A DNA stretch of 62,056 nucleotides, filler included, from Rhabdomonas costata (taxonomy: Eukaryota), in assembly GCA_019059605.1 (NCBI GenBank). It is 25 parts of 25 records of this genome, joined end to end, with 100 filler letters (N's around TTAATTAATTAA, not from the genome) between each part and the next. Parts side by side here need not be neighbours in the genome. Positions count along the whole stretch, not along the records: positions 9,956 to 12,344 come from JAHMHO010003664.1; 24 more parts are not named here. One strand, 5' to 3'. The translations under genes were made by a program, and so were the position numbers. Of this stretch, positions 6,602 through 41,829 are shown one piece after another (positions within the stretch are counted from its first letter, which is position 1; the number at the start of each line of letters is the position of its first letter). The notes under the pieces were generated by a model. That model was given only the letters and a program-made list of their open reading frames with translations, made no database searches and was not told where the DNA came from.

Positions 6602-9600
6602 GTGCGTGCCGCACCACTATACTCTTGCTTCTCAGTGTCCACAGCACTTCTCATGCGAAGTTCTCCACAAAGGGCCGCTCTCTGCTTATAACCGTATGGC
6701 TTCGCGCCTTCTCGCAGGATTTTCTGTGCGGGTTTGTGAAAGCGTTTTGTCGGCGTGGTTCTTCTACCCTGTTTCGCTGTCGTCATTCCTCCGTTCCGTC
6801 AGGCTCAGGGTCTGTCGCTGAGATGCTGATTGGGCCCCCCACCCCCCACCGGCACGCGTGTTGGGTTTTTTGTGCTTCCTATGAAGGTTCTGTGCCCTTG
6901 TTTGCAGAGCTGCCCTCGCGCTGTCCCCAGCATATCATCTGCCCACCATTTTGGCCACAATGCCCTGGATCTACAGCAAGTACTTCGCCTATAGGCTCAC
7001 AAAAGGTTTGGAGCGGACTGCGCCTCCGACAAGCCTCCCCTCTCAGCACACCTTTGCACCTTTGCATTTAAGGGTGCTTAACTCCGTCTTTCTACGGAGC
7101 ATAGTGAGCTATGGCTGCCTCTAAAGATCTTTCTGTATCAAGCGCTTGTTTTTCAGCCACCCCCAGCCCACCCTGTTCCCAAGTTTTTGGAACCTTACTA
7201 TGGATACATAAGAACAGTTATGAAGGGTCACAGGGGCCAATAAAACCCCCCTGGATGTAGGGGTCAAAAGACCGTAGGCCTTTCAATATTTTCAAAACCG
7301 CGACACGTGATTTTCTGGGACGAATTTGCAGGCTACCTGGAGACGAACAAATTCGTCCCAAAAAACNNNNNNNNNNNNNNNNNNNNNNNNNNNNNNNNNN
7401 NNNNNNNNNNTTAATTAATTAANNNNNNNNNNNNNNNNNNNNNNNNNNNNNNNNNNNNNNNNNNNNGGGGTTTGGGACAGGCACACGATGTTTTGGAGGG
7501 GAAAGGAATTCCTGGCTTAATTTGAGCAAAAGCGCAGTGGAAGGGCAGGGGGAGCGGGGCAGCTCATCAACCTCGGTGCGGAACCAGTGCCGCAAGAACG
7601 TCTGCACGGCACATTTGGGCTTCAGGTCCTCTGCCTCCTCCTCCTCGGGCTCGTTGGGGGAGTGCGGGGAGGAGGATCTCCCTGAAATAATGGATGCGGG
7701 TCTCCAGTTGATGTCACGATGACGAATTCTCCAAAGGGTTCAAACAGTCCCCAGGGAACTGAAGATTTCACAAACAAAAACACTGGTCCGAACGACAACC
7801 TTCTGTGGATAACTACTCTACATTCGTCCGGAAGGAAGCCAATTGCCGAACAGACTGCCTCGAAGCCCTTGAAGCCCGAACGCACGCCAATTATGAGAGC
7901 GTACTGAAGGTTTCTTCAGTACGATCTTCAGTAAGGCGGTGGGTGCAAGGCAATGGCATTCCCGGTTTACTATTGCCAGATCTCCCATGTGCATGACATA
8001 CGCTGGCTGATCAGTAGTCCATGGCAGCGGCAATCATTGTCTTCGTTGGGAGCAAAGTAAAGCCCGAAATACTCAGGGTCAACGGCCAACGCCTGCGAAG
8101 ACAAAGAACACAACTTTCCGCAATCAACCACCGAAAATGGAGATGGCGTCAATTCACACGTTCGTACGACATTTCCCGGTGGATGGATCACCGGAACTGA
8201 TGATTGCCCAAGGCCTTAATTCATTGCATCATTCAATTTTCAGAAGGCCAACTGTGAATTCCACAGACCCCACAACGCTTCTAATAAACCCAGGGACAGG
8301 CATTCGCAAAGAGACATTCCAGAGGAAGGGCATACAACGCAGTGGACACAATGGGTCGGCACCTGCCGAGCAATGCGACGGGCTTCTCTGAAAGGCTTCT
8401 GCTCTGCGGAGGCGGCAGCAGTGGGAGCGCTGGCAATGTCCACGTCCAAGTGCACTGCACTAGGGGACTGCAGCAGCAAGACCTCATCCGTCTGGGTGGA
8501 CACATGGGCCTTGCTGGGGGGAGGTTCGGGCATCACCATCGCAGTCCTAAAAAAAGGTGCCAGGGAGAAGGTCGACTGTGCGGAGCATCCCGTTGACTCG
8601 ACAAACGAATGTGCACAACCAGGTCATGAAAAGTGACCACTGGCGGGAGAGGGGAAGGGGGAAAGAAATGAAAAGGGGGGCATTTGGTGCTTTGCTGTCA
8701 TGTGCAGGTTGGGTTTCTTACAACGAACTGACGAAGTTCACTTTTGCCCTTCGTTTTGCGCGAGCGCTGAAGTGACAGGTGAGACCAACCACCCAAAAAA
8801 AGACGAACCCCCCCCCTCAAAAAAATATCTGGCGAACGCTTTGGCACCACGACAGAGTTCTACAAGGTCCAGCGCCTGCGCAGCGTTCGCTTCAACAATA
8901 ATAGAAGTAAAGAGGTACGTCGCAAAGAAGAAGGGAAGTGTCCGCCCTCCTGTGTGGTTCCCACCTGGAATACCTGCCCGAAAACCTCAGAATGCTCCTG
9001 TGAGATTCCGTCACTGGCAGGGGATGGGAAAAATGTTCCCTGCAGTTCGATTTGAATGATCGTCCTGGGCGACTGTTGTGTCCGCCATCGCCTCCTTCGT
9101 TTATTTTTCATTTCATTTTGTTTTTTGATCTGTTCTTATTTGCAATGGGTCTGAAACCATTCTGCGCCACGAGCTCAAGGAGTTGGAGGAACACCCTTTT
9201 TGTTACATTAATACATGTAGTTAAATTAATACCACATGTAGTGTCCTCATGCCCCCCACTACCAACTCCAACGCCATCTTAAAAAAGCCAGACAAATTGG
9301 GTTGAAAGGTTACCACATCCGGATGCGTCCGTGTCTACTTCTTTCTACTGTTCGAGTTCAACCACAACTCTCCCTTTTCAGCCCTAACCGAGTCACCTGC
9401 TTGCTGACGTCCTGATTCTCGTTGCCCATCAAGGCCACAATGCGAGGCTTAACGTCCAGCGCGTTCAGAATCCTTTGATGAAAATTGAAGCGAAATGTGA
9501 TATTCCCGCAGCGAACAGCAAGAGACGTGGCGGCGGTTCACGTGCTTGAAGAAAGTACACTGCGACCAAGAATCCCCTGTCCCACCCACTCGCCCACCGT

Positions 9601-9955
9601 GCAACAATCAATTCGGACGCTATCCCCATTTCTCTCTATCGTTTGAGCAGCATCAATTCCCGCATCAATTCGCAGGAACCTAAAAATTATGTTCACTTCA
9701 GTCAATTTTTGCTTTGGGAAATTCTGACATAATTCGGATCCTAACAAACTCAATCTCTGGATATTGAGGGCAAAGCCGAAGCAGGCCAAGGGGTCTTTTC
9801 TGTGTTCAGTGGCCATATCCCGGCCGGTCCTTGCACCGGGCCGGTACCCACACCCNNNNNNNNNNNNNNNNNNNNNNNNNNNNNNNNNNNNNNNNNNNNT
9901 TAATTAATTAANNNNNNNNNNNNNNNNNNNNNNNNNNNNNNNNNNNNNNNNNNNN

Positions 9956-10781
9956 GGTTGCCGGTGAACTCGGTGAGGCGCTGCGCCCTCCAGCGGAGAA
10001 GAACAGGGGCGTAGGACTCGGGAAGGGTCACCGCTCCCGTGATGACAATCACTGCAGCAAAGATGGTGAGGTACCCGAGGACCCACTTCCAACCTGAGGT
10101 CATCCCCAGAAACCCACCGGTAATCGGGCCCAGAGCGGGGCCCATGAAGGGTGCGGCGGAAAACACGGCCACGGCCAGGCCCCGCTCCTTCGCAGTGAAC
10201 ATGTCGGCGAGGGTTCCGCCGGAGTTCACCAAGGGACTGGCACCGAAGAAGCCCGCCAGGAACCGAAAGATAAGCAGAGTGTGGGTGTCCGAGGAGACGA
10301 TGGTGACCCCTTGCCACATCGTGAACATGGCGTAGGTGAAGATAAACAAGTTGCGGCGTCCCAGAACCTCGGAGAAAGGGGCCCACAGCAGAGGCCCAAA
10401 CGCAAACCCTAACACATAGAGAGAGACGCCCAGGGTCAGCACCACTGTGGAAGAGGGGAACTGCTGCGCAATCGAGAGGATCCCCCCAGAGTACGCGCTG
10501 GAGGCCAGGGAGACGGACAGCGTGGAAATTGCCAGGAAGATGGTGGAGTACCACTTGTAGGCCCGCGGCCAGGTCATGGCGTTCTCGGGGTGGTTGGGGA
10601 GCCACTCCACGAGGTACGGGTCCTCCTGGGTTCCCGAGCCGGCGTACTTGTGGTTGATGAGGTCATCGAAGGGGGTCTCGTAGTATCTCCACGGGGGCTT
10701 GAAAGTCTTCGGAGGAGTGAGGGTCAGGGCCCCAGAGGAGCCCACAGACTTCCCCATTTCCAGGTCAGAAGTTGCTATCAT
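9956..10781 (-). CDS. MFS transporter, DHA1 (drug:H+ antiporter 1) family, fungal-like; intronless over the visible 826 nt; truncated by contig end
   Basis: Motifs W...HPENAMTWP...KW, GFAFGPLLWAPFSEVLGRR, FRFLAGFFGASPL, GGTLADMF..KERG, GPALGPITGG, PESYAPVLL. Confidence 0.93.
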
Positions 10782-10850
10782 TTCTCAAAGGAACGAAATC
10801 GCGGGACACACACAAGACAACACAACACAAACAATCAGAAGAACAAGGAA

Positions 10851-10866
10851 CTGTAAGAGAGAGAGA
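10851..10866 (-). promoter_or_regulatory. Polypyrimidine tract plus AG (cis- or trans-splice acceptor candidate) about 70 nt upstream of the MFS start
   Basis: Minus strand reads tctctctctcttacag. Confidence 0.4.
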
Positions 10867-11968
10867 TGCGTGTGTGGATGGAAGGGCACGGCGCACACTC
10901 TCACCCCAATGTCGGTCGTGTCGTCCAACCCAACAGCACCACAGTGAACGCACCAAAAAGCCAACAGGTGTGCAGAACAAGCAGCACAAGGACATGCCAC
11001 AGCTCACCGCGCCAAGGCGCTATGTGTGTGCGTGTGATGAACGTGTGCGTGATGAACTCTTAGCTGAGCAGCTGAATGATCGGGTGTCTTACTGAAGTGG
11101 CTGGCGTTTCGACCCTGGCGGTGTGGTTGGGTCAGCATCAGCAAGACACCATCTCCGCCTGTCTTGGACGCTCTTCGTCGGGTTCTTTGCAACTATGGGG
11201 TGGAGGTCGACTTTTCGTGGGATGCTTGGCATCTGAAATGGGCACGAGACAGGGGAAGTGGATTTCTTAGGGAGAAGCTGGTGGCGTGAGGCTTCCAGCC
11301 GCTCCACAAAGCAGTGGTGATCAAGAACAGTAGTGGTAATCAAGAACTTGCCCAGGGCAACTACCATTCCCGGCTTTGTGCCGAGCTGCTGCGCAAAAAC
11401 TCCTCTGGATATTTGCGGCCTCCCAATAACTGCCAGGGCTGTATTCAGCGCGGCATGACTAGAGCTCAGAGGGGCGGCTGGGGCGCTCTGTTTTGTGAGC
11501 GAGCGTACCATCCTTCGTTACGCCGTCCTCAAAATACTCGGCCATTCAGTCCACGAACCACTCATGTAGGTCAGCGCTCTCTGAGACGGCGCTTCCAGTT
11601 CTCAACCGCCCCCACCCCCCGGCTTGAGAGTACCGATTTTCTTTTTTGTGCAGTCGTCGCAGGGTAGTTATGCAATGGCGTCTTGAGCTTCTTCTCAGGG
11701 GGCTCGCTCGAGGAAGCTTATTATTGGAGAGTACTTGTTGCCAACAGAAAACGGCATCTGGCCACATTCCGATAGTCCGCCCCGATTTTTATCGCAAGTA
11801 ACAAACCTGCGGCCTCCGAGTGTCCAACCAACTACAATACACCTTCTTCAGTGAAACCGGAAATTAACTGAAAGAATGAGTTCACCTTCAATTGAGCGGT
11901 CATTTTCCGTCATTGGTTGAACAAATCTGAGCAAATTTGCCGTCTGGACTGAATTCCTAGTTTTTGAT

Positions 11969-12018
11969 ATGGCCGATGACAGTGAGTGGCTTTTCGAATC
12001 AATCATTCAGTTCCTAAG
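11969..12018 (+). CDS. First exon of a CFAP36 (CCDC104/BARTL1)-like ciliary protein
   Basis: ATG, MADDSEWLFESIIQFL(R), then gtgcgc donor at 12019. Resembles the CFAP36 N-terminus (EW..ESI..FLR) but is only 16 codons. Confidence 0.6.
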
Positions 12019-14933
12019 GTGCGCGCAGCTTTTTGGTGCGTTAGAAAATAGAGTTTTTGGTTCCAAGCCAGCTGTTTTGTGCACCCAAACGCGCTAACTC
12101 AACATGTTAGGAGATGGGGTTACAGGTCCCCTTGCTGAAGTTTTCTTAGAAACAACGTTAGTTGGCCTTTGAAAACTCACGACAAGGGCCAGTTGCTGGT
12201 TCAGGATGTCTTAGTGCTAAGACAAGATGGGTGTGTGTGAGGACAGGCAAATTTCTCACGGAGGGACGGTTGTTCTTTGATGCCCTGATAATGCCAACAT
12301 ATTATTAAATAGATTTTCCAATTTTGATTCCAGAAAAAAACACCNNNNNNNNNNNNNNNNNNNNNNNNNNNNNNNNNNNNNNNNNNNNTTAATTAATTAA
12401 NNNNNNNNNNNNNNNNNNNNNNNNNNNNNNNNNNNNNNNNNNNNTTTTGGGCACGCCAATATATAAAAACAAATATATACAAATATATGCGCAGAGAAAA
12501 CAAATGACGTCACGACAGATTCAAAACAACAAGCGCAAGGAAAAGAACAAGAGCCACCCGCTGGTCTGATTGGCATCGACCGACACCCTGAGAATGGGGG
12601 CCCAGGGCGAAATTTTTTTGCAAAATTTTTTCGCTGAATTTTTTTCTCTACATTTTTTTTGCAGCACTGCAAGGACTCTTTCAGCAAGGAGAACGTGCGC
12701 TTTGGAGGTGGACGACGGCTGCGAATTAGCCAAAGACGAACAAGTGCTGGTGAAAAACCGCGGCAAACATACGTTCTGGTGCACAAAAAAAGGACCTGAA
12801 AAATTTCACCTTCAATTTTTTCCGCAATTTTCCCGGGGCCCCACCCTTATAAGAAGAGAAGGTGGGGAGAGGAGGGAGAGCAAACACCTTAGCAAGGTGT
12901 CTAGCTTATCCACCGGAACAGTTCCTTCCCCAGCAGAATCCAGGAAGGCCCGTGGGCTGGCCATTGATGTCCTCCCCGGAAGCGGAGAGACAAGGCCTGG
13001 GACAAGATAGTAACCGGCGGGACAAGGAAAAGCGGAGTGCAGAAAAAAAAAGAAGTGGGTCACGGTATGCACGAACGGCGCGAAAGGTGAAAGGAAAAAA
13101 GAAAAGGCAAGCGAATGAGCAGGTAGAGAAAGAGTGGAGGCCACAGAAGCAGGGATGAGAGTAAAACCTGACCACAGAAATCAGTAAACAGGGAAACAAG
13201 CGGAGAAAAAGACGGCAGAACAAAAAGAAACAAGGGCAACGTATCATTGTGAAAGAGCACAGTTTCATCCCAGGAATACCTTTGACTGTGGATGAATGGT
13301 GGTAAAAAGCGGTGAACTTCTCAATACCCAGCCACAGCATCGTTCACGATTTGCTCACAAAGGTACTCTGCACGGTCCGCACACGGCCAGACTTGCCCTG
13401 GCCAGCGCAAGGAGACTCTCTCTAGGTAGAAGTACTGTATCACAGGTTTGGAAGAGATGGGTTGTTGGCATATCACACACTTCCAATCTGAAAAATTTGG
13501 ACAACAACACCCGAGCCCTTGTGAGCGTTGATCACGCATGAATACTGAAGTCCTATTCGTGCTCAAAACAAGATTGAAGAATGATTACTGAAAAGGGTTT
13601 GCTGTGGCGGAAGGTGTGTCCCATGGATCCCTCCAACCAATTTTCGATCGATGAGTATCAGAATTTCATTTCCAAATCAAACAACCGGCTTGTCACTCCT
13701 CCGGCTTCGAGCTTGTGTGCCCTATGTGCAGCGCAACAAACGCAAAACAATGGACACAAAAAAAGACGCAACAAGAAGCAGAAAAAGAAGCACCGAGCGG
13801 CCTCTTAAGAAAGGCGCACGGAGCTTCGAGAATAAGTGCTGCATATTTACAAAAACGCTAAAATCTCATAAACTGTACATGGATTTGAATCCCGGGGGAT
13901 AGGGACAGAGAGTGAACTGAAGAACACCTGTCGCTGTGACCGGAACTTGCCGTCACAAAACGCAAGCACGCAACTCACCCATACACAGACAAGGCGCCCA
14001 ACAGAAGAGTCGTGCTGTGGAAAAACCTTCCAGATACCCAGTAACCCCCACACTAAATACAGTACCGAAGAGCACATTGAAGAAGTTCGCCCTCCTCGTC
14101 AACACTCAAAGGTGTGAACACAGAATGAGCCTGTACTCAGGGGTGCCCACGGCATTGTACTGACCCCACACGCTTGTACAACCTGCCAAGCTCGAGACCT
14201 CGGAAACCGGGGCCCCGCGGGGAAGTAGGTGCAGGGAGGGGGGGGCATCCGGAGCGTGCTACGGATGGATATCGAAAAAGCTTCTGAGGCAGTGCTGCGG
14301 GTTTCCTTTCAAGGACGAGTTCAGCTACACACTGGGGCAATCCGGGCACACCTGCACGGTAAAGTGACGCCAGACGACGCAAGCCAGGTGAAGTTGTTTG
14401 GTCCCGACAAATCACAGCAGGAGCTAGACAGACCTACTTTCCATAACTGTCCCCAAACTGCCATTGGCACAATTCCAACAATTCTGACAACAAGTCTTCT
14501 GAGAAAACATGAAAACTCTTTGCTCTGGTCCTTTCCACAAGAAACCCGCACTTCACACAAAAAATCAGCTTTTGGAACTTGGGGCACTGCCGGTGTGTCA
14601 ATTAACATGAATCCTCTTTTCCTCCTTTTGCCAGGCCAGCAACACACAAAAGTGCCCCATGTAAGGCAGCCGCAACCAAAGCATTCCGGCTCATCCCGGT
14701 GCCAGCATAAAGGACTCCCGAGCTCTCTAGCTACGTTGTGCAACAGGCCCAGTGCGGAGGCCTGCAAAAGGTCCAAAATGGGTACTCCACGCGCTTGGAA
14801 AGGCAGCCAAGTCGGAAAAAAAAAAACCCCAACNNNNNNNNNNNNNNNNNNNNNNNNNNNNNNNNNNNNNNNNNNNNTTAATTAATTAANNNNNNNNNNN
14901 NNNNNNNNNNNNNNNNNNNNNNNNNNNNNNNNN

Positions 14934-16565
14934 GTTGTTGGGGCAGAGGTGGGAGGGCATCATGGCCTGCCGGGCGGCCTTGCGGGCCCGGTGCTGCTTC
15001 AGCATAGCCTGCACCTTCCGCTGCCGTGGGTCCTTCCGCAGCCGGTCGTCCGGGAAGAAACACCTTTGGGTGCGCGCGTGGGGGTTTGTGAAATGTCCTC
15101 CCGGGTAAAAGAAACTTCCCTTGAAGAAAATGAGATGTTTGTGGCAGTTTCTGCACCAACACAGAGAAACTAAGGTACGGGGGGGGTACTCTGGGCTGGG
15201 GAGTGAACATGCGCACACCACCACAGCAGGAAGCACAGCAGCCAGGGACCTAAGGCCATAGGGCGAAACTAACACTCGTCTGCAAAACAGGGGCGTACTT
15301 TTGCGCCGTCACCGCTCCAGCACATACCAATAATAAAACTCTCTTTTCTGCCATAATAGCAAAAAGGGCTAGAGGGCTAAGCCGACGGAGGCCTTTTGTA
15401 TATACAACAGGCCTACCGATAGTGTGAATTTCGTTTGGAAACCAGATACCCCGCCAAATTCACCGCACGCAAGACCCAAGCAACACCGGTGACAGTAAAA
15501 CCATCCCTTTTCTGTCCAGTCCCGTGCCTGAAGGAAAGAGGAGCGGAAACGTCAATGCCCACGACGCACAAGCACACACCGCGAGACAGCGCTTCCCACC
15601 ACCACTGCCAGCAGCATGGCCAGGCACAGCCCTGAGGTCCCGCACAGCGCGCAAACCACTAGGGTGAAGGCCTTCTTGCTGGGTAGGTACAGCCGGTCCA
15701 CCACAAAGCTGTCCGGGTGTCCGTCCACGTAGTAGCACGCGAAGGACGCGCAGCTTGCGCAGCATTGGCAGTCCGGCACGTTGGAATCCTCCAGTTGCTG
15801 CACGTACACAACGGAGAATCTTAAAATCCAAAACAAAAAACCTCGCTCTACCCGTGCAGGTGCGGTTCTGTCTCAATCCAATGCAAAGTTATCGAAGAAT
15901 CCAGGATGAATGCAAAATGAAGGCACCTGGTGGGTTGTGAAGGTCAGCTGCCCGGACACCCAAATCAGGGTGGCAGTGGAGGCGGTGGCTGGGGAGGCCG
16001 CGGTAGCGGTATTGTTGGTCACGTTGGTGGAGCTCCGGTTAGAGCCCGAGGCGGAAACGGTGGGGAAGGTGGTGCCCGAGGCCAAGGTGGTCGCAGAGGT
16101 GGCGTTGGGGGGGCCCAGGTGGTAGCTCCTCACTTGGGCCGTGCACGTGCCGTCGACCCACTGGGCTTTGACACATATGCACTGGCTGTCAATCACATCC
16201 TGAGAAGCGGGAAGGTGGTGGGGGTGCCAGAGAGGCCGAACACCTTCTGTCTGTCTGTTTGTCTCTATTTCCCACTCAATCAATACTCAACCACTGAAGC
16301 GTTAGAAACCAAAGGTGGTGTGGAATTTGATCCGTGTAAAAAAATTCGAACGCTTCCACCAAAGCGTGGGCATTCCCAGCTGAAGCATGAATAGATTTAT
16401 CCCATGCTCCCAGTGCAAAAGCCAGCTCCCCCCTCCGCCGATCCGGAGCCAGACCCCAGTGAGGTCAGAGATGTACTGCATGGCGAAGTACACGGCGCCG
16501 TAGAAAAGCGCCCCCGCGGCTGCGACGAAGAACAGCCTCACCAGGGCATCCACGACGGAGGACAT
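14934..16565 (-). CDS. Two-TM protein with Cys-rich, Ser/Thr-rich loop (exons 16565-16455, 16199-15960, 15797-15580, 15063 to contig end)
   Basis: Four exons with GT-AG junctions whose phases (0, 0, 2) join into one frame; hydrophobic segments LFFVAAAGALFYGAVYFAM and LCGTSGLCLAMLLAVVVG; basic C-terminal tail. Confidence 0.72.
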
Positions 16566-19500
16566 TTCGCACACGAGTTAGGCAATAAGAATGCAAGTCA
16601 CGCAAGACACACAAAAAATGCACACGGGATCGCAAAAGACGAGAAAACTGAGGAAAACAAGGAAGGGACCACTGACCACTTTCTCCACTGGAATCAATCT
16701 AGGTCCAAAACATGCGGCCTTTCTCTGGTTCAGAACGTGGCAGGTGACCGCAGGAGGTTCTTCCCCTTCCTTTCGTTCGTCCTTCCTGGGGATGGGTGGG
16801 GTCGGTATGCATCCGTTTCCCGAACGCTCAAATGGAAAAGATACGGGGCAGGAGCGTGTAGCATTGGCGGTCAACGTCGTTGCTTTGGACGAGCTTGGGC
16901 AAAGCAGAAGACGAATTGCACAAGACCAAGACAGAAGGCAGGGAAGACATTGCTATACCAACTCGTCACCTACCCGCTTCATGAAGTGCATCATGGAAGC
17001 AATACAAAACGTCATCCGAATATATGATGAAGAAAGGGAATACCATCTCGGACAGTGTACAAAAGGAAAAGTCAAAAGAATATCGCGCATTGCCTTCAGG
17101 ATATTACTTCAGAGAGCTTCGCAATTCCCACCAGCATCACCACCTTCCTGTTTATTTATTTGCACGATCAATCAGCGAAATTTCGAAGTACCCGCTTTGC
17201 AGGCAGACAACATGGCCCACCAAACACATGGAAGGGCCTTGCCCGCAAAATAAGAATAAGGGCAGCTGCTCCTCTGCCCCATGCCCCAAAGCAGAAGCGG
17301 GGCACGGCAGGGACCGCACCGNNNNNNNNNNNNNNNNNNNNNNNNNNNNNNNNNNNNNNNNNNNNTTAATTAATTAANNNNNNNNNNNNNNNNNNNNNNN
17401 NNNNNNNNNNNNNNNNNNNNNTGTGTTGGGTGAGTTTAGTGGGGGAGGGAGTGCGTCGAGTGCCTGGGACAAAATGGTGTGGTGTGCCAAGCAAATGACC
17501 GTCGTCCAAAAACCAAACTCCCCAGCTCACGAAATGCCGAGCCAACTCCACTTCCGAGAGTGTTCCGACAGAGAAGAGGGCAGGTCCAAGTGGGTCGCCC
17601 TGCTGGACGCCCTGTGCAGAAGAAATGATGCCGTGTGCTGTGAAGAGGGGTGTCGGGGAGGCATAGCACCAATCTGCCCAATAATGAGCATTTTATGATC
17701 GTTTTAGGTCAAATTGACTCTTTCTGGGGGGCCTCCTGGAGACTTAACAAGCGAGCAAGGGAGGGCGTGGTTCAAGAAGAAATTTCAGGGGAAGGATGTA
17801 CCTTAGGGTCCAAAAGAGCCCTAGGGCAAGGAGTTTCAGAAAATTTCGGAATTATTTGCCATTTTCTACTATGGAGAGGATCCTTTTTAAAATTAGTTTC
17901 TGTCGTTTCTGAGTTAGGTATACTTCCGTAGGTCGGAAAAGCACCATCCCACGCATGACCAATGCCCCAACCATACTACAATTTGTTCATATAAAAAGTA
18001 CACATCATTTGAACTCCTGTCACTGCATTTCAAAAGGAATACTTTTCCGTGGTCCAGTATGCACTGGAGACACGTAACTTTGTATCCAATATTCCGTCAA
18101 AACAACCCACTCGAACCATTGTGCACACCATTAATTTAAAATTTTTCTAGACCTAATGCCTGGCACTGGTGGGCAGACAGTGAACACTAAACAAACGAAT
18201 ACACCAAAAACTGAAATGGCCCCTCAAACGTGTGACAAATCCGGGCATTGCTGGCGAACCACAGTCCACACTAACCAAAATCAATCGAAATCAATCAAAA
18301 AGAGGCCACTCTATGGTTTAAATCCGCACTGCCTTCAAAACCTCTCAACAGCCACGGGTCCGCAGAGAATAAACGCAACAGAAGCGTCCTGAGTTCCGCA
18401 CAAGGGGATGGTGCTGGCATCAAGAAACACGGCCATTCACATGGCACTAATGTTGAAGGTCAGAAACAGAAGGGGCAAACGGGCACAACGAAGTGAGTAT
18501 TCAGGGAAAAGAGCGAGAAAAGGTCACGTGACAAGCAGAACACAGTGGCCTGCGGGATGGTAGGGGAAGCCCTGGTACGTACTGTGCGGTATCCTAAGGA
18601 CAAAGAGACTCTGCCGGGGTAACGGGGTTCTAAACCAAAAAACACACAACCCTTCCACCCCTCCCTCCCTCTCTCCTTTCCACAGACCCACTTGAGCAAC
18701 AAGATACACAAGCCTACCCAGCGACACATTTCCACGTCTGCACAGGACGAGCATTCAGGATGAGGGGGAGGGTCCATCCCAAAGGATGACATCCTGGCAA
18801 CAGAACAAAAAGAGCGAAAAGCGCTGGTACAAGCGGAAACCTGAGGCGCCATTACCGCAAGGTTACTGCAGCACAAACCGGCCGAAAAAAGGCAGAGGGC
18901 CGACGCGAAAATCAAATCAAATTCCGTTTGTCCTACCTCTCCATGGCCCAGCACTCCCTGCAGCACATCCTCTTCCTTCGTTTCGATTACGCACTGCAGT
19001 GCACCATGGTGCAGAAAGGTATCCGGTAGTGCTTGAGTGGAGGAAAACTGAGGCACGGTGAAAGATCACACAAGAAAGAGATGCGAGGAGGTTGGGAGGA
19101 AGGAGGAGGGCGCTGGGAGGCAGGACAAGGTTGCTCGGGAAAGCCACTCTGTGGAAGCTGACAGAGAAGGGAAGCCTCAGACGAGCTCCCAACTCCCTCA
19201 AAGCAAGACGAAAGAACACATGAGACAGAGGCTGAAGGCGAACCAAAAAACCTGATCAAACGCTCACTCTACACAGTGCTGACGAATGACGACTGCGGTG
19301 GTTATCGGTTCACCAGTGCACGTTGCGAGAAAAAGGAGCCAGGGACAGCAAAGGAAAGAGAAAGTAAAAGAGAAAACCTGATGTAAACGAAGTCTGTCTT
19401 TATGTCATGCATTTGAACAGAGCATATTTACATTCTGAAAAAAAACGTATGCATAAGAGAACGTAATGGGTCAAGCAGAGCAACAGCACCCTGCCCGTCT

Positions 19501-20569: not shown

Positions 20570-20738
20570 TGGGTGAACGGGCAGCACCGGTATCTACAGC
20601 CGTTGCCCTGCCAGCACATCACTCTATAGCTGCGCTGGGGGCTATTCCTACCCTCTTCCGCTGAACCTCCTGTACCTCGGGGTTGTCTAGCTGACTCCTT
20701 GCCCTGGTGCGTCTGCGAGTACTGTGGATTCCCGTTGG
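20570..20738 (-). repeat. Dispersed repeat copy 1, encoding a CCCH zinc-finger segment; flanking frame looks disrupted
   Basis: Aligns by eye with 44780-44947; reads YSQTHQGKESARQPRGTGGSAEEGRNSPQRSYRVMCWQGNGCRYRCCPFTH. Confidence 0.8.
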
Positions 20739-22690
20739 TGGTAGCAAAAGGACTCTGATTTCTTGCGATGGTCGATGGTCCGCTTGTGCCTCTGCGGACT
20801 GGGTTCGTCTCTACGTGGGTTCGTTCTAGGTGCTCCTCCCTTGGGTTCACGTGGTGTATGCGTGTGTGTGTGTGTGTGTGTGTGTGGCAAAACCCAAACG
20901 CCGCCGAATGAGGGCTGCGCCGCAGTGGCGGAGGGGTCGGCGACGGCCAAGGGCTTCCTGCATACGAACGGGAGCCGCTTGGAACCCTCTGCCCATCTCA
21001 GCTGCAGCACCCTTGCGGAAACCTCCACGTGCCTTTTTGTTATTTTGTTAAGGAGGCACAAACACCGAAGAGGGACCAGGGCAACCCGACCCATGTTTCA
21101 TGACGCGAACTTGATGAATTTTTCTCGGCACACTTTTTGTTCTTCGGTAAAAAAAATTTCTAACAACTAATCAGGGGCATTTCTGTTGCATGATCGGAAA
21201 ATGAAAAACAGTGTGAGGGCAGAAACAAGCACAAGACCAGGATCGTGTTTCCACACAGACGTTTCGGTCGGCACGAAAGGGGGCTCCCAGGGGGCCACAT
21301 TTCATAAGGTTTACGCAGGAATCTTTTTTCTTTGCATCGCAGCTCTAAACGGAGTGAAACGCGGGCCGATTACGGAGATGCTGATCTCATTTGCTCTTTT
21401 TGGCATCGAGGGAGCAGGAGCTGCCACAGTCAATAGAGAGCACATGTCATGATGCCACCGACGAAGAAAGTAGCCGATAAACCGACGTGGTAGTCAGCAG
21501 AGAGGGCTCTTGGATGGGTGTGCCCGGCATTACTGGTGTCGGGGACCGATGATGCCCATGCACTCTGTTGGAATACGGTGAACGGTCCACCGAACGCAGA
21601 CTCGTTACACATAACGAGAGAGTGATTGTCGGTCAAAGAGTACGTAATACTCCTCCACGAAATGAAAAAAACAGCGATGCTTGGTGGGGAGAGGGGTGGA
21701 CAGACCCACACGGGTGGTCCGGTTCTGGGGGACTCACCGGGATAATCCCTGTGGTGAAGGGCGAGCCGTCGATCCAGCGCATCGGAGCTGCCCCGACAAC
21801 AAAGCATATATCCCCCACACAAACATGAGACTGGTTTCTGGGGTGTAGCAAATAAGGCACAAAGGCGGGGCATGTGCGGTGTGTTTAATATCATGCACGA
21901 TGTGTCGTGAAACCCGAGGCACGTGAAGTGCTTATTGGGCTCCGCACGGATTTCACAAATCCCACACACACAACTGCGGCAAGCGCTTGCTAAAACCGCT
22001 CCCACTCACACACTTCTACTCTAGTAGCTTCAGGAACTCCGCCCCACTTGCAACTGCTTCAGTGTCTTCATTCCCCCATATGTCACGTGCCCGCACTTCC
22101 GCGAAAAGAAAAAGAGAAAGGTCGAAACCTAACTCATACCGCGGCAGAATATTCAGAAATGGGCTCGTGCTGCGGAGAGCAATCTGGTGCATTTCGCAAG
22201 GTCTAAAAGCAGATCCGGGACGACCTGTTCTGTACAACACACATTGCACGGTGGCACAAGCCTCTGCCCTCGTAACATTCAGCGATGACCCCCCAAAACC
22301 CNNNNNNNNNNNNNNNNNNNNNNNNNNNNNNNNNNNNNNNNNNNNTTAATTAATTAANNNNNNNNNNNNNNNNNNNNNNNNNNNNNNNNNNNNNNNNNNN
22401 NATTTGCTATTTTTATTGAAACGTCGTATACCCTTGCTAAGCCCAAAGGAAAGTTTTGGGGTCGGGGGTCTGAGGTGCCTGCTACTGTTCCATGAAACCT
22501 GTGAAACGTGGCCCGACTGGTAGATGAATTTTTCCCCTTCCCTTCCGTGTGTCTGCGTGGTGAACCGGTGAAGCGGAGATTTCGAGAATCCTTATACGAG
22601 CACCCAGTCAGCGTACGTTGAATGTCGGGGACGATTTTTCATGCATTCATGCCACTGCCTTCTTTCAGCCCACTGTGTACATAATTTCAG

Positions 22691-24066
22691 GCTGAATTCC
22701 CGGGGCTCTCGTTGATCAACGCCTCCCTTGGGCTTCACCTGGCGCAGTTCCTGGTGCTCAGCGGGTCAACGTGGTACTCCGCCACGGCGGCGGTGTACGT
22801 CCTGGCCTCGCCCGTGGTGGGGCTGGGCTTCGCAGTGGCCTTCCCGTCCTTCCAGACCAACCGCGACTTAATGCCGTACCCTCCCCAGGTGCAGGCCGTC
22901 GACTGCGCGGGGAACCGCGTGCCCACGGCGAACGGCACCGTCACCGTGAGCTTCTACTCTAAGGTCAGATGAAGTGGTGGAAATGGAATGGTACGGTAAC
23001 GGTGAAAACGAAAGCCTAAGGGAGAAGGGGCATGGAAAACGTTCTAACCTCCGAGATATCTATGGTGGCCTATCTTGGGTGGAGCTGGTGGATAAGTTTC
23101 CTCCTGGGCAACGTTTCGGGAGGCCTGTTGTATATACAAAAGACCCCAGGCCTGCTTCGGCTTAGCCCTCTTCACCGCCAAAATTTTCCTCCTGGATTGG
23201 TGTTGCAGACCTTTGCCAACGATTGGCTTGTTCACAGCCGCACAAAATTAACTTACCCAACGTTCTACTGCCGTGGCCGAGGGGTCATCAGATGTCGTAA
23301 ACACCTGCCGGTGCCCAGGATTTACCACCTTGCTTGCCTAAACCTCCCCCACCCCCGGCCCAGAGGAAGGGGCGCTGGTGTATAGTGTTCATTGGGGAAC
23401 GTGGGGCCGTTGTCTGAAATCACGCCGCTCGTGGCTCCATCTCGCTGGCTCTATCAAGCTCCGGCCGAACTAGGCGGCGGCTGGCCTTCGCTCCTGTATT
23501 TTTGTCCTACTTATGGGCCAGAGCCCAAAAAGATGAGTCCCCGCGAACAGTCACAGCCAAGGAGAAAGGCAAGGGAAAGACAGATTAAATCCTTTTTTGA
23601 TCTATCGTTCTACAACCGTGTAACGCCGTAATACGTTTCAACGCCCCCCCCCTCTCCCTTAAGCGAGACCGCCTTTCTGAAGTTTACGATTTTTTTTGGT
23701 ATTTCAACACTCCTCCAATGAAACCAACCTGCACGTAACACCACATAATGAGGAGCGTCATGCGGAGTCAGTTTCTGTGCTCGGTCGTCCACACGCCCCA
23801 TTGCACTTTGCCTCTCCCCCCACCACCCGCAGAGCACAGGGGTTTTCATAGAGGCCGGCACCCCCGTGGGGATGGTGTACGGGTTGGCGACCTTCACGAC
23901 CCTGCGGTGTGTGAAGTGCAGCACCACTCCGGGGCAGTTCTTCAGGGCTGTGTTCAGCTGGGCAGGCTACTCGCTGTCCTCTCCGTGGTTCAACCTCACT
24001 GCCTGCCCCGCCACGAACAACCTGGTGGAGTCCCTAAGCCCAAGCTACGGCGACCTGAACGCCCAG
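22691..24066 (+). CDS. Extracellular Ig-like/IPT-repeat protein, internal exons 22691-22963 and 23833-24066
   Basis: Phase-0 GT-AG exons joining in frame; PPQVQAVDCAGNRV..GTVTV...GLATFTTL (Ig-like repeat pattern) then VESLSPSYG (IPT/TIG-like start). Confidence 0.6.
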
Positions 24067-24901
24067 GTCAGCACATAGCCGTAAAAGGACACACGCAATC
24101 ATGATCGCAATGTCCGAGGCAGAATGTCTTGCGGTGGGCAGAAGCTGTAAGGCGAAGGTGGGTGCCCCTATAGTGTGGTACCAACAGTACCCATTCGTCC
24201 ACGAGCGTGGAGCTCTTGGAAATTATGATATGATTCATTTTAAAGGAAGCGAGTTCTGACACTGACGTGCCACGAGAAAGGAAAGAAGCCACTTACCAAG
24301 AAGGAACCAACACCAATAACGTTTTTGTACACCTTTTTGTTATTTTGCCCGAAAAGTTCATTTTTAATGAACAAAAGACCCAGGCCTGCTTCGCCCTTCT
24401 GGAAAGCAAATTTGTGACCATTTTCAAGTTTATTTGTAAAGTGAAGGAAACAATAGTAGTGAGGAAGCCCCAGGTGAGAGGAGATTAGCGTAAGAGGGTG
24501 TGCGAAGGAGGCAGCGGCGCGCATCTTTACAGTGATGGCACGGCCGAAGGAACACCCAGCGGTGTGTTTGAAGAACAGAAGGCACTAGCCAACCAAGGTA
24601 GGAAGATGGAGACTCAGGACCTCAAAGAGATTTGGGCAGCAACGGAACAGTGGAGACAGCCGTTGCAGGAAATAGTGCTTGACACTGAACTCTCTTCTGG
24701 TCACTGGCTCAGACGTCGTTCAAGATAAATAGCAGTCCCGAAGGGAGTGACCAACTTGAAGATGGGCCCCAAACGAACCCCCCAACCACNNNNNNNNNNN
24801 NNNNNNNNNNNNNNNNNNNNNNNNNNNNNNNNNTTAATTAATTAANNNNNNNNNNNNNNNNNNNNNNNNNNNNNNNNNNNNNNNNNNNNGGGTTTGGGGG
24901 T

Positions 24902-36338: not shown

Positions 36339-36632
36339 TTAGGATGATGTCGTCGCAGCTGAGTCAGCCGTCCCGCTACCCATGGCCGCATCATCCTGAC
36401 CAGGAACGCCCTTGAGCCAGGCAATGGGCTTTGGGGAAGAGCCCCCTAGCTCTGCGGGGAGCTGCTCTGGGGCAATAAACTCCCGAATGTGCGTGAGGAA
36501 GTCCGTGCCCCAGATGTGAATCTTCTCCCGGACCACGGGGTCCAGCCATGGGGAGACGATCTTCCACCCAAAGCTCACCACTCGAGGGGCATTGATCACG
36601 AACATGTACCGCATCCCCTCAGGATACACAGC
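36339..36632 (-). CDS. CRAL-TRIO/Sec14 lipid-binding protein, terminal exon
   Basis: cag acceptor, then YPEGM..MFVINAP...W.IVSPWLDP.VREKI...FIAPEQLPAELGG, then stop. Confidence 0.9.
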   Translation of the reverse strand, partial: AVYPEGMRYMFVINAPRVVSFGWKIVSPWLDPVVREKIHIWGTDFLTHIREFIAPEQLPAELGGSSPKPIAWLKGVPGQDDAAMGSGTADSAATTSS

Positions 36633-37332
36633 CTGATCTGATGCGCGAAAAGGAAAATGGGGGTTATCTCTTACAAAACATCTCTCACTGGATATGAACC
36701 CAAAAGAAGAAGAGTTGCGGAGGCTGCGACGACGAAGAAGCACCGTCAACGATTGGAGGGGATGGGATTCGGAAAGATCGTGCATAATGACCGTAAACTG
36801 AGACTTTTGTCACATGAACTCAGTTTCTCGGCATAAATCTTGCGTCTGTACTGTGTTGCCAATCGGATGCTGGATTGGGGAAAATAGCATCTTCTACCCC
36901 GAAAACATTTGCCGCCCCGTGCAACCCCTTCTTTTTGAGACTCATCTTTGTTTGCCAAGCTACGCTGCCAGCTGGGGGGTTATGTACCTGTACTCAGAGA
37001 CACTCATTCGAGCAGGATTTTAGGGCTAAAAGACTTCAGATCGGAATGTCACAGACTAATCTCTCCCGGTGGAGCTAACCTTAGTATATAATAGACAGAG
37101 TGAAGAACAGAAGTCGGATTCACAGACCTAGAGTAGAGATCTTGTTCATGAAGCTGATCGCCTGAAACGAAAAATGTCCGAAGAAACTGTCCGCTCACCT
37201 TGAGTAGGCAAGTTACCAAAACCCNNNNNNNNNNNNNNNNNNNNNNNNNNNNNNNNNNNNNNNNNNNNTTAATTAATTAANNNNNNNNNNNNNNNNNNNN
37301 NNNNNNNNNNNNNNNNNNNNNNNNGGTTGGGT

Positions 37333-37502: not shown

Positions 37503-37900
37503 ATAAAAAGGTTGAGTAATGCGGCCGTTCTACCGTGCCGCAAAACAATAGGTGCGGCAGGCTACGACATTGCGACTGTGACCAACTTGGTCGTTCCTGC
37601 GAGAGTAAATGCGGTAGTGCCTACCGTCTTGAGGTAACTCCTGGTAGCTATGGTTGTATAGCCCCGCGCAGGGACTTGGCTGCAACTCGACACATCGCTG
37701 CGGGAGCTCGAGTGATCGATGCAGACTACCGTGGTAATATTGGCGTTGTCATTTTTAACAACTCAGACCAAGACATTAACGTTACTATAGGAGACAACGT
37801 GGCGCAGCTCCTCCTTGAGAAGATTGCAACCCAAGAAGTAATTGAGCAAAGAGAGCTGACAATGACCGGACGAGGAGGCCAATGCTTTGGCTCCACCGAT
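37503..37900 (+). pseudogene. Trimeric-type dUTPase domain within the retroelement (one frameshift near 37630)
   Basis: Five motifs in order: AAGYD, IAPRRDLA, VIDADYRGNIGV, IGDNVAQLL, RGGQCFGST. Confidence 0.9.
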
Positions 37901-39709
37901 GCGCCTGGCACATCACCTGTATTTTCAGCGCATATTCTGCCCTCGAAGCAGACAGCTCTCAGGATCAAACTGGTGCTCTCCCCTCCGGGAAACTTACCGC
38001 ACGTTAAGCGTTTCGCAATCTCCTCAGAAAAAGAACCAGAAGAAGTCTCCGAAGCTGAAAGGCAGCGTATCAGTTGCTTTGCAGAAACTAAACTTAAATC
38101 CAAGAGACGCAGAAAATTGTCCCCACGCTGTTTGGTCGAAATGCAGTTGGACCTCAAAAACATCGATCCCTGAGGAATTTCTACAGGTGAACGGAGAGTT
38201 TGCTCACATTGTTTACGATAAACTACCTCCTGGTCTCCCACAATCTCTGCAGACCGACCATCGCATTGATCTAATGGAAGCTGCCAAGGTACCGGCACAG
38301 CGTCTTTACCGTCTGTCACCCCTCGAGGACAAGGAGTTGCAGCTTCAAATGAAGGAATTCCCCGACCTTTGTTTTATTCAACCGACCATTTCACCAGATG
38401 GGGCAGGTATTATCTTTGCCGCAAAAGCCAAAGGAAAATTGCGTCTTTGCGTCGACTACAGGCCACTAAATGCCATCACAAAGGTGGATGCAGACCCCCT
38501 ACCTCGAATAATGAAATGATGGATCAGGTAGGTAAGGAGCGTTACTTTACTACGCTCTATCTACACTCCGGATTCCACAAAATCCGATCCACCCTGACCA
38601 CATCGAGCGCACTGAGTTTAAAATCAAATACGGCACCTATCACTACCGAGTTTTGCCGTTTGGCTTCTGTAACGCCCCGCCTACCATGGACCTTCTTTTC
38701 TCCGACATTTGTAAATCTGCAGGAGCCTATAATGACGATGTTTTTATTTTCACTGACACGATCGACCAACATCTGTACGCACTGCGTCAAGTCTGTAGAC
38801 GATTAGACGACAACAGCCTGTGCGCTAGCCCGGAAAAATGCTCCTTCTGCAAACCATAATTTGAGTACTGCGGGTTTTTTGTCTGCCAAGAGTGTGTCCG
38901 TCCTATGCCCGAGAAGCTTGCGGCTTTTCTTATCTGGCCGACTCCTCGCAATCCTACCGAAGTAAAGAGTTTTCTGAGTTTATGCGGTTTCTACCAGCAA
39001 TTCGTCCCTGACTACGCGACTTTCGCTGCCCTCTTACCTACTTAATGAAGAAATGTCGCAAATGGCACTGGGTACCAGCGGAAATCGCCGCATTTGAAGA
39101 ACTTAAGACGCGTCTAATAAGACACCCTGTTCTCGTCATCACTGAACTTGCAAAGCCATTGATCCTTCACACTGACACCTCGGAGGTCGGCGTGGGAGCA
39201 ATCCTGTCGCTGAATGACGAGAAAGGTGACATCAGGTTGGCGGCCTGTCGCTCCAGAAAACTGTCATCAGCAGAAAACAAATCCAGTTCACGAAAATGAA
39301 ATGCTTGCACTTGTGGACTCTATGGAAGCTTGGAGCCATTATCTCTTAGGTGCAGACGTCTATGTTTACACCGATAACTCTGCTCTCAGATACCTACAAA
39401 AGAACCACCGACCAGCACTTCGTCAGATTCTGTGGCTCGAAAAACTTCAGGCCTACACACTTAAAATTACACACATTCCATGGCGGATGAATTCAGCGGC
39501 AGATGCCCTTTCTCGAGAACCAATTGAAAATTCTTCCCTTTTTGGAATGCTAATGTACGAAGTGCCAGGATCACCAACATCCGTCACTTTCTTCGGGCCT
39601 GTCCTCTCTCCCATCGTCCTGGAGTCAGATGACTGGTGGGATGACTATCTTGAGGACCATCACTGCAAGTCTACCTACTTTCATCCAGACACAGATCAAC
39701 TAAAACCCG
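37503..39709 (+). mobile_element. Degenerate Ty3/Gypsy retrotransposon pol fragment: dUTPase - RT - RNase H
   Basis: RT motifs DHRIDL, KLRLCVDYRPLN, PFGFCNAP, YNDD (38728-38739), PEKCSF; RNase H motifs LHTDTSEVGVGAIL, EMLALV, VYTDNSAL, NSAADALSR; several stops and frameshifts; no introns. Confidence 0.93.
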
Positions 39710-39809: not shown

Positions 39810-41829
39810 GTGGTGGTGGCTCCAGCATCTTGCTCCACCACCTCCGGGTATCCTGAGACGGAATATGAACCCGGCTGGCAACGTACATCCAACCGTCGCC
39901 CTCGGGAACCACCGCAACGCAGCGCCGCGCCACTCGCCACATCGCCGGAATGATCGGCGTGGGGTCGTACAGGTAGGCCTTGGGGAAGGCCGCCTGCAAG
40001 GCCCGGGTGGCCTCCCAGGCGTGGTTGTGGGGCATCTTGCTGCACAGGTGGTGGGCCACGTGGGTGCTGCCAATGCCGTGGTGCAGGAAGTTGATCACGG
40101 GGCCGTACGGCTGTGGAGGTGCAAAGAAAACAGACAACACGGCAAATCGAAGAAGTCAAGAATGCAATGCATAGAAGAAACCCCTCCACAGTTTTGCAGC
40201 CATGCTCTCTGACCCTCCTCAGGGATGCAGGAAACACATACAACAACTCAACGAAGTACGATCTCCGTCATCATTAACGGCATCAAATATAAAGGGACCA
40301 AGGACCTAACCAGATCAATAACGAGCACACGCATAAGCACCTGCCTAGTCATTGAGTCTTGGGAACGCTCTAACGTGGGGCAGTCGGAGGTGGACACTCA
40401 AAACTTCACCCACTTGGGAGCCTACAAAGGTCTGGGGGCACTGGTTTGTCGGATACATACGGGTGTCTCAACCACATAAACAAGCACGAAACGAAGACGT
40501 GACACACCCTGTCGACGGTCGCGAACACTCCGCGGACCCAAAACCAGTTCGCCTCCTCGAAGTGCGGGATGTCCACATCAGTGTGGTGTAGCCAAGTGTA
40601 CAGCACAAGCCAACCGTTCGTGACCAGGTAGGGACCCCCGTACAGCGCCAGGACAGTCGCCCAACCCACTTCGCGGGCCCATATCATGAGAAGCGTCAGG
40701 GTCACCAGCACCCCGATGTCCGAAAGCAGAACCCTGCGTCGCCACTTTCCTGGAAACAGCTTGTCATTAAAGGGCACGAAGTGGTTGCTGAGGCCTCGTT
40801 CAGGGCCCCCTACAAGAAAACAAAGGGAAAAAATAAATGGGTGGACATCCCCCCTCTTTCTTCACACAACAGGCTTCATTGAGAGACTTCACCATTGCAT
40901 CGCAAATGAGCGAAGCACGGTGAAGCATGGTGGCCACTTTTGCCGTGGGCGCGACGAAAGATCTGCCGGTGCTTGGGGGCGGAAGGAAAGGCGGCAGCAA
41001 GCAAGCAATGGGTGTGTGGAATGTGCGAGGTAAGTGAACAGACGGACTGCTCCCAATTCGACTAAAATGGTGAGAAACATGCCAGTGTATCCCAAAGTAA
41101 GGTACAGTGGCCAGCCCAGCACCAAGTGGTTGAAGCAATTGAGGATTCCAAAGATTCCTTCTCCAAGGAGATCGTGGAGAGTAACCATGAAGTTTCCGTA
41201 CGATCCTGGTACAGCCTGAGAGCAAATAATCCACCCTCACACCAACGTCAATTAGTGTCTGCCCAACAAATAGTCACAGGCACATTTGGTCGAATAAACT
41301 GTGCTTCTTCCGCACCATCGGTTTTATGACCAGCTGTTGCACCGGGGACTGAATTGAGCTGGAATTGTCAAACTGGCTGGATCGCGGTGCATGCTGGTGA
41401 GGCACTGGGGAATTGTAACATGGATGCAAAGGACGCCCCCCTCGCCCGCGATATTTCCCGTCTGGGCCCTTGGTCCACTTTACTCAGTGACGGCGTGAGG
41501 ATTAAGTCTTCGGATCCTCCATGCGACACGACAGCACCCATTTCCGGGCGATCAGCTCTCTATGTCCGCATTGCCTGAGGTCGGATTCCTCGCACAGACA
41601 CACCCAGATTTCCGTGGGGAGAGACGGGCTCCGAGGAACACCTGATTCGGGACGTGGGTCTCTCCCTGTAGGAGGTGATTCGTGCGGCTGTGGTGGATCT
41701 GATGACTGCGCTGGAAGCTGAAGTACGGCACAAGCAAAGCAGAGTGCAGCACGAAGCCCACCGCGTCCTGCAACGCCGCGAAGCCGCAGAACGCCCCGTG
41801 CCCACACTCGTGGGCAATCACCCAGCACC
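39810..41829 (-). CDS. Delta-12/omega-6-type fatty acid desaturase (exons 41829-41642, 41215-41083, 40809-40508, 40110 to contig end)
   Basis: Three His boxes HECGH, HQIHH, HVAHH; also YTWLHHTD and ATVDRPYG; exons join in frame with one GC-AG intron. Confidence 0.93.

Follow-up and report, generated by a model that had tools for sequence, protein, structure and literature searches.

Has an osmotrophic euglenid taken up a transporter gene from a smut fungus, or was a fungus sequenced along with the euglenid? This question is raised by a stretch of the genome draft of Rhabdomonas costata (62,056 nt, hereafter the window), in which positions 9956..10781 on the minus strand encode the amino-terminal part of a predicted DHA1-type transporter of the major facilitator superfamily (MFS). 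R. costata is a primarily osmotrophic euglenid flagellate that was grown in a monoeukaryotic, non-axenic culture. Its DNA came from microdissected cells or from cells isolated by fluorescence-activated cell sorting (FACS) and was amplified prior to sequencing, contaminant removal dealt with prokaryotes only, and the assembly is very fragmented, with an N50 of 1,194 nt and a longest contig of 8,093 nt (PMC8219788, available text). The window looks as expected of a draft of this kind. In this study we found, by sequence comparison, that the transporter fragment is real and that its descent from smut fungi (Ustilaginomycetes) is solid. Codon usage, flank composition, and the scarcity of smut signals in a protein table favor its residency in the euglenid genome, and we regard a genuine transfer of the transporter gene from a fungus to a euglenid as moderately probable.

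The window consists of 25 separate pieces of 2,379–2,395 nt, arranged in roughly descending order of length and joined by 24 artificial spacers of 100 nt (N44-TTAATTAATTAA-N44, which gives 48 runs of exactly 44 N; e.g., 9856-9955 and 12345-12444). The transporter gene is located on the piece at 9956-12344 (2,389 nt), to which the rest of the window is unlinked. Because the window is a concatenation of unlinked contigs of ~2.4 kb, arguments from synteny or gene neighborhood are void across the spacers.

The reading frame of the transporter begins with an ATG (10781-10779) that is immediately preceded by an in-frame stop, runs uninterrupted for 826 nt (codons 1-275 plus 1 nt), and stops at 9956, which is the edge of the piece and not the end of the gene. 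The translation is identical at 273 of 275 residues to RCo036078 (P0002; 627 aa), a transcript-derived R. costata protein in EukProt with the same start codon; identifiers beginning with RCo mark proteins that were predicted from a poly(A)-selected transcriptome of R. costata (PMC8219788, available text). This near-identity bears out the flagellate host that had been proposed in an earlier interpretation of this DNA, made without database searches (the sequence-only reading). The visible portion corresponds to residues 1-275 of the 627-residue protein, i.e., 44% of the coding sequence, and residues 276-627 were found nowhere when searched for across the window. The sequence-only reading had described 826 nt of intronless MFS coding sequence: the frame is real, as indicated by the Pfam match described below, but the term intronless applies to this 44% only. 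The two mismatches to RCo036078 are at residue 64 and at the last residue, which lies at the contig edge. Codon 64 (10590..10592, minus strand) is CAC for His, where RCo036078 and the fungal relatives have Asp, and the His64 codon in the DNA is either allelic or an error made in amplification or assembly.

The fragment matched Pfam MFS_1 (PF07690) over residues 83-258 and profile positions 1-177 of 347, with a score of 83 bits against a gathering cut-off of 33.4 (E = 2.4e-23), and it was also matched by Sugar_tr (E = 4.3e-11). In transporters of this type, motif A in the loop between helices 2 and 3 reads G...SE..GRR/K, and antiporter motif C in helix 5 reads G...GP..GG. A motif-A-like string, GPLLWAPFSEVLGRR, is found at residues 129-143, and an antiporter-motif-like GPALGPITGG is visible, with FMGPALGPITGG at residues 212-223; these strings are also present in P0003 from Kalmanozyma brasiliensis and P0008 from Mycosarcoma maydis. 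The leader, HKYAGSGTQEDPYLVEWLPN.PEN, aligns to the equivalent leader of Ustilaginomycetes proteins. Thus, the leader and the DHA1 motifs that had been called Dikarya-like do align with, or recur in, the smut orthologs, except that the His of the HPEN cited for the leader is Asp in these relatives. DHA1 transporters have 12 transmembrane helices, compared with 14 in DHA2; a crude hydropathy scan gave 12 peaks in RCo036078, some of them overlapping, and 11 and 13 in two fungal orthologs. By its closest relatives, which are fungal and annotated as DHA1, the fragment is assigned to the DHA1 subfamily. Among the matches listed (the best 120 of 727, see below), the source names of the relatives include mfs-multidrug-resistance transporter, polyamine transporter 3, benomyl/methotrexate resistance protein, and mdrA, which are annotations and not assays. 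Solved structures are only remotely related, the matches being yeast Qdr2 (E = 9.7e-8, 34 bits, residues 76-257) and bacterial QacA (E ~1e-7).

The protein search that underlies these comparisons gave 727 proteins at E ≤ 0.001 among 8,000 candidates, the best 120 of which are listed. After RCo036078, the next-ranked matches are Ustilaginomycetes or unnamed proteins with 61-70% identity, the genera represented being Kalmanozyma, Mycosarcoma, Pseudozyma, Moesziomyces, Ustilago, Sporisorium, Melanopsichium, Thecaphora, Testicularia, and Violaceomyces. Tremellomycetes, Exobasidiomycetes, and Ascomycota rank lower (~50-57%), and the nearest fungal sequence listed is only 66-70% identical to the query. 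We built trees from 58 of 121 proteins, leaving out the 63 others; the rows were 14 Ustilaginomycetes (all named), 6 named Exobasidiomycetes, 8 Tremellomycetes and 9 Ascomycota of our choice, 5 non-fungal or unnamed EukProt proteins, 15 unnamed proteins, and the query. In the careful tree (IQ-TREE; LG+C20+F+G4 with posterior mean site frequencies, PMSF; 611 columns), the query was placed inside a set of the 14 Ustilaginomycetes and nine unnamed rows with a support of 100/99 and, within this set, inside the Ustilaginomycetes subset without Violaceomyces with a support of 98/91. Two quick trees under two models gave the same placement. Constraining the 23 fungal rows to group together with the query excluded cost 11.5 log-likelihood units, with a p value of 0.027 in the approximately unbiased test, which is weakened by the fact that the group was defined after the tree had been seen. 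The rest of the gene tree tracks fungal classification, with a Tremellomycetes clade at 100/100 and an Ascomycota clade at 87/63. The terminal branch of the query (0.80) is longer than those of the Ustilaginales rows (≤0.33) and Violaceomyces (0.48); given this long branch and the 66-70% identity to the nearest fungus, the source was not a common laboratory yeast.

The tree also bears on the possibility of an ancient DHA1 gene of euglenozoans or protists, inherited vertically and merely fungal-looking, which we regard as scarcely credible. Members of the family are carried, among the matches listed, by a rotifer, Planoprotostelium fungivorum, and one EukProt transcriptome (P0040, P0111, and P0079), but these three form a DHA1 clade of their own beside the Ascomycota (100/96), far from the query. 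The rotifer in that separate clade is a bdelloid. In addition, the query lies four levels deep, in Basidiomycota, then Ustilaginomycotina, then Ustilaginomycetes, and other euglenozoans are absent from the best 120 of the 727 matches. A vertical protist origin is contradicted by the careful tree and was rejected. Because the query is nested inside the Ustilaginomycetes, its fungal ancestry is solid, and this placement refutes a broad protist origin. The protein search and phylogeny that had been suggested as a check revealed no grouping with broadly distributed protist homologs, and the proposed fungal transporter of the Dikarya type is supported. The matches from a fern (P0045) and a hornbeam (P0084) were also placed among the fungal rows; these records look like contaminated assemblies.

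The gene and its flank are host-type in composition. The GC content at third codon positions (GC3) is 0.80 in the MFS fragment (third positions C 126, G 95, T 39, and A 15) and 0.82 in a host exon set (C 112, G 112, T 36, and A 14), which comprises four Pfam-supported exon stretches, 274 codons in length, from three other pieces. The relative synonymous codon usage of the fragment correlates with that of the host exons at 0.64, with that of a retroelement in the window at 0.12, and with that of a fungal homolog from a metagenome at -0.02. These composition tests lack a fungal non-coding calibration, the sole metagenome locus (L001) being 1,205 nt long, all coding, and 50% identical. The GC content is 0.61 in the coding part and 0.50 in the flank, which mirrors the published values for R. 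costata of 58.25% for the transcriptome and 51.63% for the genome (PMC8219788, available text).

The flank (10782..12344; 1,563 nt) contains no supported gene and resembles the other 24 pieces in composition. Its GC content is 0.504, compared with 0.483-0.560 in the other pieces, and its trinucleotide distance to the other pieces pooled is 0.140, compared with 0.159 ± 0.056 (14 of the 24 pieces are farther). The dinucleotide delta* is 0.057, compared with 0.066 ± 0.030 (27 of 48 control segments are farther), and the values for TpA (0.48), CpG (0.78), ApA/TpT (1.27), and CpA/TpG (1.26) all match those of the other pieces. Pfam gave no match to the three open reading frames (ORFs) of at least 90 aa in the flank, and no stop-free stretch of 30 codons with host-like GC3 was found in it. 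An Rfam search of the flank gave no family at threshold (best, snoU6-53 at 12207-12267, 18.9 bits where the gathering score is 36), and a tRNA search of the flank found none. Likewise, no repeat common to this piece and the other 24 was above chance (best, 22 nt, E = 1.4).

We also searched one supplement of the genome paper for genus names; its tables S1-S10 include the mitochondrial proteome as predicted, together with best NCBI matches (PMC8219788, this file). Nine of 13 basidiomycete genera had no occurrence in these tables (Pseudozyma, Sporisorium, Moesziomyces, Malassezia, Tilletia, Cryptococcus, Kalmanozyma, Anthracocystis, and Puccinia), and Thecaphora and Violaceomyces were also absent from them. 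Ustilago, Testicularia, and Rhodotorula occurred once each and Melanopsichium twice, and the four Ustilaginomycotina rows are weak matches (E = 8.3e-7, 4e-12, 2.2e-13, and 4e-23). For comparison, 'Euglena gracilis' occurred 112 times and 'Trypanosoma' 66 times. RCo036078 itself was not present in the file. A live smut yeast present in sufficient numbers to give a full-length transporter transcript should leave strong matches in tables S1-S10, and none was seen there; this supplement therefore speaks against a contaminant.

The sequence-only reading had based its case for integration on linkage to a host gene: a spliced, CFAP36-like first exon lying ~1.2 kb from the transporter, head-to-head on the other strand. 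The string MADDSEWLFESIIQFLR, followed by GT, is present at 11969..12018 on the plus strand, 1,187 nt from the MFS start, but its identity as CFAP36 is unsupported in four tests, and it may be a chance occurrence. The likeness to CFAP36/BART-like proteins consists of a 12-residue pattern, EW..ES...FLR, right after the start codon and then GT; on the other side, no support came from Pfam, the PDB, protein databases, or a language model, and the GC3 is untypical of host exons (0.56 compared with ~0.8). Specifically, the profile test returned no Pfam family at E ≤ 10 for five frames, namely the 58-aa frame holding the supposed exon and four downstream frames. A word-indexed search with the 58-aa frame against 5.8 billion proteins of 103-2,000 aa gave six word-sharing candidates and none at E ≤ 10. 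By our estimate, an exact 17-residue match is expected to score ~35-40 bits, so a protein with a start like the supposed exon is probably missing from the EukProt R. costata set. A phmmer search of the PDB with the frame gave only Sin3a (E = 0.66), and the best neighbor of the supposed exon in the ESM Atlas was a bacterial DUF645 protein (0.77). An alternative consensus donor, GTGAGT, is found at 11980-11985 and could end the exon after MADD (four codons), and no downstream frame could be joined to the supposed exon in phase by GT-AG, as judged by eye. Given that a 17-residue query has little statistical power, the CFAP36 identity is to be regarded as unsupported and not as disproved. Without support for this exon, linkage of the transporter to a host gene is not shown, and the argument against contamination that had been drawn from a neighboring cilium gene fails. 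The claim of an integrated fungal gene is accordingly upheld as regards fungal descent, whereas its original basis is lost, and integration is favored instead by composition, codon usage, and the protein table.

A polypyrimidine tract followed by AG had also been noted upstream of the MFS frame and is indeed there, the AG being 69 nt from the ATG. On the minus strand, the tract ATCTCTCTCTCTTAC (10853-10867) is followed by AG (10852-10851), and this element (10851..10867) is a possible spliced-leader acceptor. If the AG is the trans-splice acceptor, the sequence at 10782..10850 on the same strand, which has an in-frame stop before the ATG, would be a 69-nt 5' untranslated region. CT-rich stretches are common in fungal promoters too, and the tract and AG therefore do not discriminate between host and fungus. 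The leader tail CATTTTTTCG, taken from the available text of PMC8219788, had no occurrence in the DNA of the window, which agrees with a leader that is added in trans.

Several observations weigh against residency. No unmistakable host gene was found in physical linkage with the transporter on the piece at 9956-12344, the visible coding part of 826 nt contains no intron, and no other euglenid homolog is present among the best 120 of the 727 matches. The CC/GG value of the flank is 0.95, which is 2.8 SD lower than that of the other pieces (1.09 ± 0.05), and segments of 1.5 kb are noisy, with control delta* values ranging from 0.019 to 0.188. Similar codon usage could also occur in a GC-rich smut yeast, the power of these tests to discriminate a fungus from a euglenid being uncalibrated. 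The clean-up was for prokaryotes only and the culture was non-axenic (PMC8219788, available text). Furthermore, in table S7 of the same source, the cytochrome c RCo030283 has Ustilago bromivora as its best match (E = 4e-23) and is flagged as having no E. gracilis homolog; it could point to a fungal source, either as a second fungal-type gene or as a contaminant marker. RCo030283 sits in table S7 beside a second, Euglena-type cytochrome c, RCo028914. The lack of a linked host gene and of an intron, the prokaryote-only clean-up, and the cytochrome c row, together with the nesting of the transporter protein inside the Ustilaginomycetes and the position among fungal rows of the fern and hornbeam records, would be consistent with a contaminant, in which both the piece and the transcript stem from an unsampled Ustilaginomycete yeast in the non-axenic culture and gene and flank are both fungal. 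We consider this explanation unlikely, although it deserves serious attention. Against it, the codon usage of the MFS fragment and the composition of the flank are indistinguishable from those of the other pieces. A flank with 50% GC adjoins a coding sequence with 80% GC3, which would not be expected in GC-rich smut genomes, and the 1.56-kb flank has no long ORF, which is unusual in compact, intron-poor smut genomes. The nearest known fungus among the matches listed is only 66-70% identical despite dense sampling, strong Ustilaginomycotina best matches are absent from tables S1-S10, and the culture was monoeukaryotic with FACS-sorted cells (PMC8219788, available text and supplement).

A host-like flank next to a fungal-type gene would also be accounted for by a chimeric contig, in which a coding fragment from a fungal contaminant and euglenid non-coding DNA were fused near 10782-10900 during amplification or assembly; we judge this very improbable. 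The draft was built from amplified DNA (PMC8219788, available text), and low-complexity runs rich in CA and in GT occupy positions within 10800-10890, a short distance upstream of the ATG. Pieces of the window end with primer-like tails, many having a G/T-rich tail at the start and a C/A-rich tail at the end (e.g., 17422-17439, 42294-42310, 7467-7480, and 9847-9855). These bases are probably untrimmed and primer-derived, and the outer 10-25 nt of each piece are therefore unreliable. An 18-nt primer-like motif of a commercial amplification kit matched the window with up to three mismatches at three sites, namely 933 (internal, on another piece), 17422, and 42293, the latter two being piece starts with two mismatches. 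None of these matches is inside the piece at 9956-12344, and an adaptor-marked chimeric joint was thus rejected. A chimera would moreover leave the host-like codon usage of the coding part unexplained, and the transcript-derived protein shares the same ATG.

The remaining features of the window are on pieces unlinked to the transporter, apart from one short stretch in its flank. In this stretch, 27 codons of a 142-codon ORF (11104..11184, minus strand) resemble P0122, a 137-aa predicted protein from a 702-nt ENA contig (20 of 27 residues identical, E = 5.7e-4), which was the only match to the 142-aa ORF among 1.84 billion representatives in an exhaustive phmmer search. No significant fold, Rfam family, or tRNA was found for it, and it may represent either a short repeat or a non-coding element that is conserved. 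For the Pfam scan, we took 254 stop-to-stop ORFs of at least 90 aa in the window, left out six that overlap the MFS frame, and scanned 248, of which eight had a match at E ≤ 0.001 (1 of 126 and 7 of 122). Partial matches to a fatty-acid desaturase (FA_desaturase) were found on the minus strand at 41555-42013 for the N-terminal part and at 39811-40155 for the C-terminal part, with GC3 values of 0.82-0.85; the two parts are in separate frames ~1.4 kb apart, which points to a split gene with an intron. Another split host gene is represented by a CRAL_TRIO exon at 36342-36809 on the minus strand (E = 1.4e-18), which covers profile positions 89-153 only. The splitting of other conserved genes into short exons, to which the uninterrupted transporter frame had been contrasted, is thus seen for FA_desaturase and CRAL_TRIO, but on unlinked pieces, and the contrast is not supported. 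A retroelement pol fragment at 37520-39708 on the plus strand (dUTPase, E = 2.6e-19; RVT_1, 2e-10; RT_RNaseH_2, 4e-17; RT_RNaseH, 3e-13) has a GC3 of 0.43-0.55, below that of the cellular exons. A 177-nt repeat with 84% identity is found at 20570-20746 and 44780-44955 on two otherwise unrelated pieces, and a shorter repeat of 34-56 nt is common to the pieces at 7467-9855, 14934-17321, and 22402-24789.

On the reading that we favor, the piece at 9956-12344 would be a fragment of the nuclear genome of R. costata or a near-identical strain, and the gene, of which the 5' 44% is present, would have been acquired horizontally from a fungus of the Ustilaginomycetes, i.e., the smut fungi and their yeasts. 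The gene would be expressed, given that a matching product of a polyadenylated transcript exists (EukProt RCo036078), and its product would be a drug:H+ antiporter of the DHA1 type within the major facilitator superfamily, which probably has 12 helices. Judging from its fungal relatives, this protein may act at the plasma membrane, where the proton gradient would drive the export of cationic or hydrophobic toxins or polyamines; the efflux function and substrate class are inferred from this analogy. Residence in a euglenid chromosome and use of the upstream AG (10852-10851) for spliced-leader trans-splicing are likewise putative. We lean, by a small measure, toward the whole of this scenario, in which an osmotrophic euglenid captured a multidrug or polyamine efflux pump of a smut-type basidiomycete, brought its codons into line with the usage of the host, and expresses the gene, presumably in trans-spliced form.

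We found no literature report of a fungus-to-euglenid transfer or of this transporter gene. If the scenario is true, this would be the first documented gene transfer from a fungus to a euglenid, and the borrowing of fungal genes by osmotrophs for their membrane-transport toolkit would extend to a fifth, unrelated lineage (Discoba). A truly resident gene would represent a clean, datable eukaryote-to-eukaryote transfer into Euglenozoa with an identifiable donor class, and whether Menoidium, Distigma, and other Rhabdomonas have it would serve as a simple dating marker. Efflux of toxins or polyamines would be ecologically sensible for an osmotroph living among sediment bacteria and fungi. If the gene is instead a contaminant, the EukProt copy of the proteome contains fungal sequences that survived the prokaryote-only clean-up, which matters to its users.

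The closest known counterparts of the transporter are the 'probable mfs-multidrug-resistance transporters' of Ustilaginomycetes, such as P0008 from M. maydis and P0003 from K. brasiliensis. These share 64-70% identity with the query over 90-99% of the fragment, have the same N-terminal leader, H(R/K)Y.GSGT..DPYLVEWLP.., are of similar length (595-611 aa, compared with 627 aa for RCo036078), and form the clade within which the query lies. Unlike these orthologs, the query is carried by a euglenid or was at least sequenced with one, it has a terminal branch about twice as long (0.80 compared with ≤0.33), RCo036078 has a distinct C-terminal tail, and the codon usage of the query matches that of the euglenid pieces. 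Characterized fungal DHA1 drug:H+ antiporters include Flr1, Candida Mdr1/BenR, Tpo1-4, and Qdr2. The query resembles them in its MFS_1 fold and in its motif-A-like and antiporter-motif-like strings, whereas it is only remotely similar to yeast Qdr2, the closest solved structure.

Transfer of transporters from fungi to other osmotrophs has precedent in oomycetes, which acquired from fungi transporter genes with a link to osmotrophy (PMC6063262 and PMC6431176, available text). The lineages treated in a 2026 survey of osmotroph transfers are Fungi, Labyrinthulea, Teretosporea, and Pseudofungi, and the terms 'euglen', 'MFS', and 'Ustilag' do not occur in its available text (PMC13345962). Compared with the transfers to oomycetes as described in the available parts of these papers, the R. 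costata case would differ in having a euglenid (Discoba) as the recipient and in resting on a single gene on a 2.4-kb piece with host linkage unproven. It would resemble them in that a fungal transporter, for nutrients or for efflux, is found with an unrelated osmotrophic protist and the sequence of the recipient is nested within those of the fungi (PMC6063262 and PMC6431176).

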